A DNA stretch of 57,688 nt from an uncultured delta proteobacterium (GTDB taxonomy: Bacteria > Desulfobacterota > Binatia > Bin18): positions 1 through 57,688 of the forward strand of contig CAVTCR010000014.1 of NCBI GenBank assembly GCA_963733195.1, given 5' to 3'. Under the pieces are notes generated by a model that saw only the letters and a program-made list of their open reading frames with translations, was not told the DNA's origin and ran no database searches. Position 1 is the first letter of the stretch. Every line of letters begins with the position of its first letter. Positions 46,874 through 54,179 of the stretch are shown here, one piece after another. Made by a program: the position numbers and the translations under genes.

Positions 46874-48627
46874 TTATGAATTGTCGGTTTTCTTGAAAAA
46901 ATCTTGGCGTTGATGGTAGTAACCGATGGCGAAACGGCCTTGGTCAGCCAAAGACAATTGGCCAGGGAAATCACCGATACCGTCCATGATTTCGCCGATG
47001 CGCTTTTCCAGGTTCACCGCGCGACCGCGATTGTCCAATTTGGACAGATGATGATTCTTCAGTTTCAGCAAGGTCGAGAATACTGTCACCGGTGTGCTTG
47101 AAGCCGCTCCGTAGTACCGATCGCGTATAGTAGCGTTGATCCCAGGGTTTGCTTCCTCCTGGATTTTTTCCAACACGGCGAACAACCGGCCCAAGCGATA
47201 GCCAGTGTTCGTATTGGCTTCGTCTAGCGACATTTTCAGTTCCTCCTTTACGGCAGGGTTTGCGTAACGGGTTGCGCGGTTGATGCAGGCTTTGATCAGC
47301 GCAGCGCGCGCATAGGTCACTTCATGTTCCGCTCGAATGCGACGCACGGCAGCCGCGAGCAACGTTTGCGGATAGGGCAAATCTGCAAGAATGCTGCGCA
47401 TGATTTCGCCGCCGAGATTCGGTGGAATGTTGTCGGCTTTGCCGAGTGTGGCCACTGAGACAAGCAAGCGAAACAACGAGAGATAGGGTGGATCGTGCGG
47501 TGCGCGCTCAATGGCAAGGTCGTCGAAGTGACGCTTGAATGCGATCGGCCATCTCCGCCACCGTACTATGGTGCCAGAAACGGATAGCGATGCGCGCGGC
47601 GTTGGGTGCGAGCCCCAACACAAAGAATTTCGCTTTCCCTTCGTCGTTCTCTAATAACCCGTGATCGATGGCTTTGTAGAGGCTTGTCACCGCACGCACG
47701 TTGCGGTCGGGATCGTCTTTAGGCGGCTCGCCAAAAATATCGACGACACCAGTTTCCAATTCTATAGGCTTATCGGCCCAGAACACCGTGCGAGGCATCA
47801 CCAACTTGCAGGCGTTGCGGTGAATCTCTTCGAAGCAGGTAATTTAGCGCAGTGGTGTAAGCAAATGCAGCGCGCTTACCAACGGGTGAATTATAACCTT
47901 GAGACTTATTGAACGACCGAAACGCGGGGCGTGCTCCATCATTTACCGCGACGATGTTGGCTCCCGAAGTTTGCGCGCCCCACACGCCTTTGATTGCCGT
48001 ATGCAGCCGCTCGATCTCATCGTTTTCTCCGGTGATAAGGCAGGTCCCATCCCCTACTTTTTCACCTACGCTCGTACTAATCGCGGCCACCACTGCCGGA
48101 CTTTGGCATACCAATGCAAGATCGCCCTGCAAGCGAAAAGTGATGTTTGGGTTCGTTAGTGTAATCTCTTCCCATGTTTTGCCAAATCGTTGCAGGGCTT
48201 CCGGTTCGTAACTCTGACAAAATCTCGTGACCGCGCAAATACCTGGATCATCTTTTGTAGTTCTGGCGATATTCTCGATTTCCCCTACAAATGCTGCATG
48301 GAGCTTATTCACGCGATCTTCGTAGTCTTTTTCTTCACCCTTCGCTTTTTTTTCTTCTAGCTTTTTCGGATCTGGCAAGCGAAACACATACTCGGCACTT
48401 TCCCACAATAAGTTTGCTACTATATTTCCAGATTTCTTCACCCCTTGAGGAACGAGAAAACTCCGCGCCCGCTTCTTCTTCCCGTCCAGGTAGCGGGTAT
48501 CTTCGATTTGCACGACGGAACCGTCTTTCGTTAATTCGAGGATAAAGGGGATTTCCTTCATCTCGAACCCTTCATGTGGTAGATCTGGATTGCGTTGATA
48601 GTAGTCGTAGAGTGCATGGAGAATCAT
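46874..48627 (-). CDS. cas8c: Type I-C Cas8c (Csd1; frameshifted)
   Basis: [54 protein letters not shown]. Confidence 0.92.
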
Positions 48628-48913
48628 CCGCGTACCTCCTCACTGTCCCAAGCCGGAACATCTACGACACCATTCACTAACTGTGCACGAAAAAAACGTG
48701 GCATGGGGTCGGCGGCGTTGTGATAGTCCAAGTCGTAAAGCATGTAGCCCAGGTCACGGCTCTCGGCGATTGGTCGTGATTGCGAAACTTCTGGGTCTAC
48801 CAAGGTGAAACCTGCGGCGAATTCGCGACAGCCAAGATACGGCTGATTCACGCACTGGCCTTTGGCAGTGCGCCGTTCGAACATAGTCATGAATTTCACC
48901 ATCAGGTTTGGTT
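48624..48913 (-). pseudogene. cas5: Cas5 (Cas5d), 3' part after the intron
   Basis: KFMTMFERR..KGQC..QPYLGCREF..DLGYMLYD..FFRA..GV. Confidence 0.9.
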
Positions 48914-50736
48914 GTGCGCCCACGATGGTGCTTCATCAGCACGGTGCAAGTCCGTGTCGGAGGAAGCTACAACTCCGTAGCCGAAGGTAACTGCGTCGCT
49001 GCGAAGCGGGGTGGGGAGCAACCGGAGGCGAAAGGTCGGTCCGCAGGAGGACGAACGCGATTCGGCGGGATGTGGCGGCGAGCCTGCAACTAAGTGGCGA
49101 AGCCTGAAACTCACCGCTCACGCTGGCGTAGCAGACAAAGCGATGAGCGGGCGCATCACGTGGTTGGCGGTGGAACGATCAGAAGATGAAGCACAGGAAG
49201 TGGGGAGACCTGGGAGTCGGGGTGACGTCCCCAGGAGTCAGAGCCCTCATGGTACCGCTCGTGGCTGTGGCCTGCCGCTACGGGACCGATGCTGTGGCAC
49301 CGCCGGGAAACCAGGCGGCCAACAGAGAACACAAACGGGTCCCTACGGTGGCAGGGCAGACAGCAACGGAAAAGCGCGGGGAGCAAACCCGTGCCGAGGG
49401 ACGGGGGGTAGGAAGGTAGGAGACGGGAGGTCAAGCATCTATGCAGCACGTAAACGAGGCAGCCTCGATAGTGCCGGCAACGGCTAAACAAGAGGCAGAC
49501 AACTCAGGGCCACGCGCGTGGACCTGGGTCGAAGCAGAGGTGTGGACCGACCGGATGTTGGCGGCCCTGGAGAACGGGGTCACAGGAGGAAGATGGTATA
49601 GTCTGATGGACAAGGTCTATGCTCCCTGCACGCTGGAGGCGGCCTGGAAACGGGTGGCAGCCAACCGAGGCGCGGCGGGTGTAGATCGCGTGAGCGTGCA
49701 GCGGTTTGCGCGGCAGGCCCAGCGCTATCTGGCCGAGTTGGCCCAGGAGCTCGGGACGGGAGTTACCGGCCCGACCCTGTCCGCCGTGTGTATATTCCTA
49801 AAGGGCCGGGACGCACCCGGCCATTAGGCATTGCCACGGTCAAAGACCGGATTGCGCAGGCCGCCGTGAAGCTGGTGCTGGAGCCGATCTTTGAGCGGGA
49901 GTTTCTCCCGTGCAGTTTTGGCTTCCGCCCAGGCCGGAGCAGTAAGGATGCGTTACGAGAAGTGGATGGGTTGCTCAAGGGCGGGTTACGGTTGGGTGGT
50001 CGATCTCGATTTTGAAAATTACTTCGACTCGATTCCCAAAGGTCCCCTCTTGGCGCAAGTCGCCGAGCGGGTCAGTGACGGGCCACTGTTGCAATTGGTT
50101 CAGCGCTTTCTCGACCAGGACATTCTGGACGGGGTGAAGCGCTGGACGCCGATTACGGGTACCGCCCAGGGGTCGGTGCTCAGTCCGGTGCTCGCTAATC
50201 TGTACTTACATCCGCTCGATCAACTCGTGTCCCAGGCAGGCTACCGCATCGTCCGCTATGCGGACGATGCGCTGATTCTGTGTCAAACCCAAGCGGAAGC
50301 CGAGGCTGCTTTGGCCTTGGTACAAGCGTGGACGGCACGGAATGGCTTGCAGTTGCACCCGGACAAAACGCACATCGTGCATTATGGCGAGCCAGAACAA
50401 GGCGTGGAGTTTCTGGGCTACCGGTTCACTGCCGGAATCCGTGCAGTGCGCCCCAAGAGTCTGATGGCGCTGAAGGATAAGCTCCGTCAGAAGACGGGCC
50501 GTACCCGGAGCGGACGCCTAGAAGACATCATTGCCGAGCTCAATCCTATCCTGCGGGGATGGTTTGGCTATTTCAAACATGCACGACGCTCGACGTTTCG
50601 CGCTCTCGATAGCTTTGTCCGTCGACGCCTACGGGCTCTTCTGCGGAAACGGGAGAAACGGCCCGGCTTTGGCCATGCACCGAGTGACCATCGCCGATGG
50701 CCCAATGCCTTCTTCGCTCAGCGAGGGCTTTTCACC

Positions 50737-53603: not shown

Positions 53604-53737
53604 GCTTTTCACCTTACATGAAGCCTATGTTGCGGCGCGCCAATCCCGATGAGGAAACCACCGACTGGAGAGCCGTGTGCGGGAGAACCGCCTGCACGGT
53701 TGGAGCGGGGAGGGTTACGGCCTTTCCCGACCCCTAT

Positions 53738-54179
53738 CGTTTTCTATATCGCCCTCATCTACGTTCACGATTCGTTTGCTCAGATGCGGAAAGTCGGTTT
53801 GTGAAAGCTCGGATCACGCAGTTCGAACGACGCATGAATGCGGTATTTCACGTCACGCAGAAACAATCCTGCGCGTTGATGGCGATCATCTTCGATATAC
53901 AACCCAACTGGCCTGAACCGGATTTCATCGCGGTTCAACGACGTTACGCGTCGAAGCGACGGAACTGACTTCATTTCGTCGCAGATTGATCCATTTGATG
54001 GGGTTAAGCACTTCGATCTTGCTTACTTGCCAGCGGATGGCCGGTTTCCAAAGAATGGCTTCAAACACAGCGCGCGCGGCTGACGGCGTCATCACGTCGT
54101 AGCTGACACGCTCGACTTTCATTTCTGGGCGTGTGAAGCACGCGAAATCGCCGCTCACTTCAAGGCAATAGGTTTTCAT
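53738..54179 (-). pseudogene. cas5: Cas5 (Cas5d), 5' part before the intron
   Basis: [49 protein letters not shown]. Confidence 0.92.

Follow-up and report, generated by a model that had tools for sequence, protein, structure and literature searches.

An antisense group II intron with nested insertion sequences in cas5d of a type I-C CRISPR locus

The window analysed here is an entire contig of 57,688 nucleotides (57.7 kb; C14, CAVTCR010000014.1) from an uncultured delta proteobacterium of the lineage Binatia, whose 6.95-Mb draft genome is assembled in 87 contigs (assembly G000). The minus strand of the window from 43.9 to 56.4 kb carries a type I-C operon of the CRISPR system, composed of cas3, cas5d, cas8c (Csd1), cas7, cas4, cas1, and cas2, with no cas6 found by Pfam. 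The cas5d gene of this operon is divided into two exons by a group II intron on the plus strand, and the intron in turn contains two insertion sequence (IS) elements, IS-A and IS-B, nested one in the other. The explanation in which we have good confidence is that the antisense intron would have landed off-target in cas5d, would later have been hit by the IS elements, and should disable the locus. The features of the split gene and its insert are as follows.

53738-54179, minus strand: N-terminal exon of cas5d (Pfam Cas_Cas5d, 1.8e-17 over residues 1-84; DNA alignment with five relatives; three-frame translation)
48914-53737, plus strand: group II intron, 4824 bp as found, with the ends 5' GTGCG and 3' ...CCCCTAT (Rfam, nhmmer)
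48624-48913, minus strand: C-terminal exon of cas5d, 95 codons and the stop, plus two bases of a split Glu codon (Pfam Cas_Cas5d, 1e-5)
49441-50736, plus strand: codons 1-432 of the intron-encoded reverse transcriptase (RT)/maturase (Pfam RVT_1, 2.1e-26; GIIM, 2.2e-17; TIGR04416, 1.1e-60)
50737-53602, plus strand: IS-A, IS4-like, about 1509 bp in two pieces, 50737 to ~51199 and ~52548 to 53602 (inverted and direct repeats)
51200-52547, minus strand: IS-B, IS4-like, about 1.35 kb, within IS-A (Pfam DDE_Tnp_1, 2.1e-5; IS4 family, 2.8e-12, below the cut-off)
53614-53652, plus strand: end of the RT/maturase, its last 12 codons LHEAYVAARQSR plus the stop, severed by IS-A (reading of the sequence)
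53668-53737, plus strand: intron domains V and VI (Rfam RF00029 Intron_gpII, 40 bits, equal to the gathering score; E 2e-4)

The split gene and its insert

When position 53738 is joined to 48913, the two cas5d exons read ..DEGDIEN-E-PNLMVKF.., which keeps the frame set by the ATG at 54179 and duplicates no base. A first-pass annotation of the same DNA had described a plus-strand group II intron antisense within the minus-strand cas5, the excision of which from 48914 to 53737 restores the frame with no duplication, and this description was correct to the base. The C-terminal exon is 78-80% identical to the 246-aa Cas5 of four relatives. The closest metagenome Cas5 found (L120; 83.7% identity over 246 aa) is contiguous at the junction, where it reads DEGDLENEPNQAAKF; on the antisense strand it has GGTTCGGTT/CGTTTTC against GGTTTGGTT/CGTTTTC in the window, the slash marking the junction. 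The N-terminal exon differs from the relatives by three indels (+2 near 53937, -1 near 53901, and -1 near 53794) with a net change of zero.

In all 80 metagenome loci with a related Cas5 C-terminus, the reading frame continues past the junction position on its upstream side, for 130 codons or more in 73, up to the contig end after 79-108 codons in five, and for 16 and 96 codons in the other two. The Cas5 genes examined in relatives were whole in five of five cases (246-253 aa). No insertion at the junction position was found in the 80 metagenome loci or in the five relatives' genes, and the exact 26-nt exon pattern had zero matches in metagenome contigs. Public sequencing runs were also screened by sampled words; the highest share in any run was 0.27, with no match to a source sample. 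Four of these runs cover the intron and the IS elements, whereas their depth is zero over cas5 exon 1 and close to zero over exon 2, an absence to which no weight is given.

The insertion truncates Cas5d after about residue 148. An intron that lies antisense to a gene cannot be removed from the host mRNA, so no full-length Cas5d is expected from the window locus. In type I-C systems, Cas5d is both the endonuclease that cleaves the precursor of CRISPR RNA (crRNA) and a subunit of Cascade, and the window locus should be unable to make its crRNA-processing enzyme or a complete Cascade.

The intron is typical in size and ends of a group of related introns. It measures 1947 nt after IS-A and one copy of its target duplication are subtracted, which is identical to the length of the intron at locus L017, and the introns of relatives range from 1838 to 2000 nt, with GUGYG/AY-type ends like those of the window in 48 of them. 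In nhmmer alignments, its 5' 527 nt match dozens of related introns, starting at base 1 or 2, with E values as low as 1.7e-99. A check with the Rfam Intron_gpII model, suggested in the first-pass annotation, gave the match at domains V-VI on the plus strand listed above, a region that folds at -38.4 kcal/mol (z -3.15). Domain V reads GAGCCGUGU GCGG GAGAA CCGC CU GCACGGUU and has an AGC triad, a 4-bp distal stem, and the 5-nt loop GAGAA. Among the Rfam D1-D4 models, the sole match was RF02003, with 25 bits against a gathering score of 49 bits. The annotation had also proposed a check for other copies of the intron; it is single-copy, with none further in the assembly.

The RT/maturase aligns with residues 1-432 of the 444-aa proteins of relatives, which have no endonuclease domain and end in ...GLFTLHEAYVLASQSR. 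The TIGR04416 model gave 205.6 bits on the 281-aa fragment of the window protein, under its 300-bit cut-off. From ~49800 to 49983, the RT/maturase runs in a different reading frame in the assembly, and metagenome intron contigs are without one base at 49983 in all four runs.

About 2.9 kb of the 4.8-kb insert consists of the two nested IS elements. IS-A sits between codon 432 (Thr) of the RT/maturase and its last 12 codons, bounded by 17-nt inverted repeats at 50736-50752 and 53588-53604 and flanked by the 11-nt direct repeat GGCTTTTCACC at 50726-50736 and 53603-53613. An uninterrupted copy with 85% identity lies at C36:2-1510, and its match to the IS4 family (9.1e-11) is below the cut-off. 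IS-B has 22-nt inverted repeats (95%) at 51200-51221 and 52526-52547 and the direct repeat GGTGCCGGTGTCC at 51189-51201 and 52546-52558; further copies were found on C16 (98%) and C69 (82%). Introns with ~97% identity in public soil and rhizosphere runs join 50725 straight to 53603 and have no IS-A (four of four runs). In the proposed course of events, IS-A would have entered the end of the RT/maturase after the intron was inserted, and IS-B would then have entered IS-A. The IS insertions probably froze the intron in place, with a presumed loss of its mobility.

A chimeric join of a cas5 contig with a contig of intron and IS sequence must be weighed in a draft of 87 contigs with visible consensus errors, the more so since IS repeats mislead assemblers. 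We give such an artefact almost no credence, since each boundary of the insert coincides precisely with a canonical intron end, the two parts of cas5 continue one another in frame with neither missing nor extra bases at the join when compared with the relatives, each IS has a separate target duplication, and the intron without IS-A has the same 1947 nt as the L017 intron; a chance join would not yield such features.

Exon pairing and target choice

The pairing of the intron with its target was examined with the aid of related introns. A set of 80 loci with related intron proteins (55-68% identity) gave 62 nhmmer hits starting at intron base 1-3, from which 59 sequences with enough flank were kept, the window's included, 55 of them distinct. 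The covariation scan compared every exon position with every intron column in the first 260 nt of 53 sequences, two with aberrant 5' parts being excluded. The intron-binding site (IBS) and exon-binding site (EBS) concerned are listed below together with the hairpin to which EBS1 had earlier been assigned.

48908-48913, plus strand: IBS1 TTGGTT, the final six bases of the 5' exon on the strand antisense to cas5, pairing with 49088-49093
49088-49093, plus strand: EBS1 AACUAA in a hairpin loop closed by GCC/GGC (covariation, fold)
49300-49320, plus strand: hairpin earlier proposed to hold EBS1, with a CCGCC/GGCGG stem and a GAAA cap (fold -17.8 kcal/mol, z -2.98)

The strongest mutual information of exon positions -1 to -6 is with the columns at 49088-49093, in order, with paired fractions of 1.00, 1.00, 0.96, 0.96, 0.92, and 0.91 (n=53). 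In the window, EBS1 AACUAA and IBS1 UUGGUU form five Watson-Crick pairs and one G-U pair, and the minimum-energy fold leaves AACUAA unpaired in a 6-nt loop. A fixed-anchor test on 54 introns, one sequence without the anchor having been dropped, gave a mean of 5.59 of six positions paired. In 2000 shuffles of the exons the mean was 2.63 +/- 0.21, and the value observed was never attained; register slips of the anchor account for three of the poorest scores. This shuffle test overstates independence, because the introns are kin. The real evidence for this EBS1 is the many differing pairs that compensate one another, with 30 distinct EBS1 hexamers among the 54 introns. The first 3'-exon base is C in the window and in 41 of 48 relatives. 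Exon positions -7 to -14 had no partner column among the first 260 nt, where their paired fractions peaked at 0.08-0.68 and the mutual information was low, and no EBS2 was detected there.

The first-pass annotation had placed EBS1 at AACCAG (49309-49314), pairing with TTGGTT at 48908-48913. Both sets of letters are present at those positions, and the assignment itself is rejected: GGGAAACCAGG is invariant in seven introns, the window's included, despite exon ends as different as TTGGTT, TTAGTC, TTAGTT, and GAGTCC, and AACCAG is mostly buried in the stem of the GAAA-capped hairpin. Folding and covariation thus move EBS1 elsewhere, to 49088-49093, while the exon pairing, whose absence the annotation had named as a sign against its proposal, persists. 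The idea of base-pair-directed targeting stands to the extent that the exon pairing exists through this loop; as a claim that the intron was directed to this particular site it is overstated, with 957 occurrences of the pairing motif TT[AG]GTT/C in the assembly and no hairpin at the site.

The introns of the relatives sit directly 3' of GC-rich hairpins, often followed by T runs, such as CCGCGnnnGCGGTTTAGTC/ with the slash at the insertion point, and their 35-nt 5' flanks have a median fold of -11.4 kcal/mol, with 42 of 53 at -8 or better. At the cas5 site there is no hairpin (-2.9 and -3.2 kcal/mol, z +0.83). In the mechanism proposed here, an endonuclease-less group II intron of ~1.95 kb would have reverse-spliced into the strand antisense to cas5d of the type I-C operon, at a site that would have supplied only the RNA-DNA pairing (IBS1 with EBS1, and C as the first 3'-exon base) and no hairpin. 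The event would be off-target retrotransposition and not homing to cas5; this reading is taken because of the missing hairpin, the number of pairing sites, and the absence of any insertion in the 80 loci and the five relatives, and it is in this sense that the insertion appears to be a matter of chance.

The class of the intron was considered against published descriptions, taken from passages of the papers cited here and below. Targets with upstream stem-loops are reported in these passages only for class C (IIC) introns (PMC1702495, PMC4424553, PMC7923331), which are described as having an EBS1-IBS1 pairing of 3-4 bp and, in domain V, a CGC triad together with a distal stem shorter by 2 bp (PMC1702495). 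The window intron resembles IIC introns such as B.h.I1 in the lack of an endonuclease domain, in a conserved first 3'-exon base, in a length of ~1.9 kb, and in having no EBS2 found in the first 260 nt (PMC1702495, PMC4424553), and its relatives resemble B.h.I1 in lying directly downstream of GC-rich inverted repeats, several of which are followed by T runs. Unlike IIC introns, its EBS1-IBS1 pairing is 6 bp and not 3-4 bp, as six positions covary and the paired share of each is 91-100% among 53 introns; its domain V has AGC and not CGC, with the 4-bp distal stem and the 5-nt loop; and the window copy itself does not lie behind a hairpin.

Classes E and F, which are IIB-like, offer a second comparison. 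They are described as having a 5-nt domain V loop, a 6-bp EBS1, and a covarying EBS2-IBS2 (PMC3753933), and the window intron is like them in its small ribozyme, 5-nt domain V loop, 6-bp EBS1, and lack of an endonuclease domain. It is unlike them in that its lineage has no EBS2 in the first 260 nt scanned and in that its relatives have the upstream stem-loops reported only for IIC (PMC7923331). Target-site data for classes E and F were not found in the passages of the literature consulted. The IIC-attC introns of integrons insert antisense to neighbouring genes at a structured DNA motif, with a short IBS1 and IBS3 (PMC7923331, PMC4424553), and in this they are similar; they differ in that no attC site or integron is present here and in that their target consensus is TTGT/T against TTGGTT/C in the window.

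The whole L017 protein, compared with solved structures, scored highest with the IIC reverse transcriptases 6ar1 (219.8 bits) and 7uim (206.3), followed by the chloroplast-like 6me0 (170.7) and LtrA (142.2), in a reference set that has no members of classes D, E, or F, and the window RT fragment gave the same ranking. The nearest solved structures are those of IIC reverse transcriptases, by a modest margin. Because the ribozyme departs from the IIC description, the likeness to IIC is drawn from the target sites, and we suggest that the intron works like IIC in target choice only, a statement that carries no class assignment.

A tentative and rather doubtful further proposal is that these introns form a widespread proteobacterial lineage which combines hairpin targets like those of class C with an IIB-like ribozyme (6-bp EBS1, AGC triad, 5-nt domain V loop, and no detectable EBS2). 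If true, this would be a second, undescribed way to combine structure-guided and pairing-guided target choice, and the cas5 copy would show that integration can occur in vivo by pairing without a hairpin and can knock out genes, defence genes included. The lineage is a more interesting loose end than the insertion itself and may merit the attention of specialists.

Some further observations were made on the ribozyme and its copies. The ~97% identical metagenome copies (three runs) have G and not T at 49091, giving the EBS1 AACGAA, for which TTCGTT would be the partner; this may be a retargeting change. A stretch of ~100 nt with the GAAA-capped hairpin, at 49250-49345 in the window, is present in the window intron and six relatives and absent from L019, L035, L064, L053, L036, and like relatives; judged by these alignments it is a lineage-specific expansion of the ribozyme. 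Two intron copies lie head to tail at L020:1932-4354, where the 3' exon of the first copy opens with GTGCGCCCAC, the 5' end of the second.

Frameshifts and the state of the operon

The rest of the operon is colinear with that of a relative (tblastn), with the CRISPR array downstream of cas2. The genes and the array are as follows.

54189-56418, minus strand: cas3 with HD and helicase domains, in five frame pieces in the assembly (Pfam HD, Cas3_HD, DEAD)
46874-48627, minus strand: cas8c, in three frame pieces (Pfam Cas_Csd1)
45975-46874, minus strand: cas7 (Pfam Cas_Cas7)
45331-45971, minus strand: cas4, in two pieces (Pfam Cas_Cas4)
44193-45224, minus strand: cas1 (Pfam Cas_Cas1)
43889-44248, minus strand: cas2 (Pfam CRISPR_Cas2)
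42934-43126, minus strand: CRISPR array of three identical 38-nt repeats and two spacers, leader side toward cas2 (TRF, repeat scan)

By tblastn with the proteins of a relative, frame switches number four in cas3, two in cas8c, and one in cas4, seven in 7.6 kb. It is possible to read them as decay, in which case the intron entered a cluster of genes that were already decaying as pseudogenes and was a neutral passenger, not the cause of the loss of function. Consistent with this are the three indels in cas5 exon 1, the tiny array of three repeats with an orphan repeat 1 kb away, the accumulation of two IS elements at one spot, and the state of the orthologous I-C operon in a complete genome of the same family (L097; G015:C1:3797000-3811500), which also has a split cas3 (462 + 342 aa) and a short cas7 open reading frame (ORF; 211 aa). 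Against it, the genes cas7, cas1, and cas2 of the window locus are whole, and the frameshifts are untrustworthy for the following reasons.

In the same assembly, rpoB is in three frame pieces and rpoC in at least three (C71:133111-141235), while dnaE is whole, and it is because these essential genes are also frameshifted that the frameshifts of the cas genes are not trusted. As a control, 178 ORFs were sampled from a complete relative genome, 93 of which had a good counterpart in the assembly; a frame switch was present in 16 of these 93 conserved genes, with 17 switches in 111.5 kb, or 0.15 per kb. The conserved non-cas genes of the window contig have four switches; these fall in 4.4 kb if an identity of 60% or more is required and in 8.1 kb if three weaker matches are admitted. 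This contig is worse than the assembly average, and its non-cas rate is not clearly different from that of its cas genes. When the window IS-B is compared with its 98% twin on C16, ten one-base gaps are seen, about seven of which, counted by eye, are a base missing from a short C run of the window copy. We conclude that the small frameshifts are, as far as these comparisons indicate, largely or wholly consensus errors.

An earlier reading of our own, in which the operon and the intron protein were full of real frameshifts and the locus was multiply dead, was withdrawn on account of rpoB and rpoC, the 16 of 93 genes, and the IS-B gaps. The 62 ORFs of at least 1000 aa, taken at one point as a sign of a clean assembly, were misleading, given the frameshifts in rpoB and rpoC. 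Pseudogene calls in this assembly need read support, and its frameshifts should not be taken as a sign that genes are decaying. Only one lesion, the intron with the IS elements nested in it, is independent of base-level accuracy. Because the frameshifts are unreliable, they neither date the order of events nor decide whether the intron was the first or only lesion. Prior decay of the locus is regarded as unlikely, and off-target insertion of the antisense intron into cas5d, followed by the nested IS elements, as the better account.

Several points weigh against this account. If the seven switches and the three cas5 indels are real, the intron is not the sole lesion and perhaps not the first. 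The hairpin preference, on which the off-target reading draws, is taken from relatives whose proteins are just 55-68% identical. Two contigs of the ~97% identical copies match the window 5' exon for 9 nt and then diverge, and the ribozyme departs from published IIC introns in its AGC triad and 6-bp EBS1.

Other CRISPR loci and the meaning of the insertion

The first-pass annotation had held that interference is off and had proposed a check for a second cas5 in the genome. A second I-C locus was found at C51:10877-20722 (L098), with a whole cas5 (240 aa), cas8c (631 aa), and cas7 (282 aa), and with one frame break each, of doubtful reality, in cas3 and cas1. Its array has at least 14 repeats and reaches the contig end; its repeat is the 38-nt repeat of the window, letter for letter, and the leader-side flanks are alike at 37 of 40 positions. 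Because of this locus, "interference off" applies at most to one of two I-C effector modules: for the window locus it is a reasonable expectation, and for the cell it is left unsupported by the whole cas5-cas8c-cas7 and the identical repeat on C51. The Cas5d of C51 may well process the window array too, if C51 belongs to the same cell, of which a draft bin is no proof.

The two loci are unequally related along their length. Their Cas3, Cas5, Cas8c, and Cas7 differ strongly, and their Cas4 and Cas1 are alike. Cas5 of C51 and of the window are 31% identical over 55 aligned residues; identities to one and the same relative are 37% for Cas3, 32% for Cas7, and 71-80% for Cas4 and Cas1. As far as can be judged from these comparisons, effector modules seem to have been exchanged beside an adaptation module that both loci share. 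On C62:385685-390779 (L099), a type I-E locus (Cse1, Cas7e, Cas5e, Cas6e) is present in fragments only, with one TGA inside cas5e, and remnants of cas1/cas4 lie on C28 and C73.

The annotation had also described the retroelement as acting as a CRISPR knock-out. In its strong sense, this would mean that the retroelement targets CRISPR-Cas as a strategy or that the host was selected for the knock-out, for example, against self-targeting. The struck gene is needed in I-C systems for both crRNA processing and Cascade, and EBS1 pairs with the site, as such a strategy would have it. We consider it very improbable, since the assembly holds 957 equally pairing-compatible sites, the targets of relatives are hairpins outside such a context, the position is empty in the 80 metagenome loci and five relatives' genes, and a second I-C locus remains. 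Self-targeting finds no support either: of the 15 spacers in the two I-C arrays, none is matched over its full length anywhere else in the assembly, and the longest stretch shared is 19 nt. Taken by itself, the insertion is one event in a draft genome, and nothing points to its having been selected or having recurred.

The effect of the insert on transcription of the downstream genes was addressed by two scans. Terminator-like sites on its minus strand number 4, against 4.9 +/- 2.4 in shuffles, so polarity is neither supported nor opposed, and a promoter consensus scan gave no excess over shuffles.

Interruption of cas genes by IS and other mobile elements is familiar, and the present case is like those in that a mobile element breaks a cas gene while the array and other genes stay. 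It is unlike them in that the element is a retroelement, there is no target duplication, and the site was chosen by RNA-DNA pairing. A full-text literature search of a limited collection with limited terms found no description of a cas gene that contains a group II intron; the passages on group II introns in PMC8865420 and PMC1525189 hold no cas gene insertions. The insertion adds a new example to a known kind and does not amount to a new mechanism. It offers a clean natural example in which a retroelement has disrupted an effector gene of CRISPR and the pairing with the target is known exactly. It also indicates that introns which usually sit behind hairpins without harm can insert within genes; it is chiefly useful as a worked case, with the true EBS1 and the nested mobile elements.

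A few observations concern the surroundings of the operon. An orphan CRISPR repeat with two mismatches lies at 41859-41896, ~1 kb past the three-repeat array, and between the two are ORFs without annotation, for example, 42134-42733 (no Pfam match); the orphan repeat may reflect an insertion into the array or a partial deletion of it. At the other end of the window, a transposase ORF at 57376-57687 continues past the contig end, and its C-terminal motif is presumably ISL3-like.

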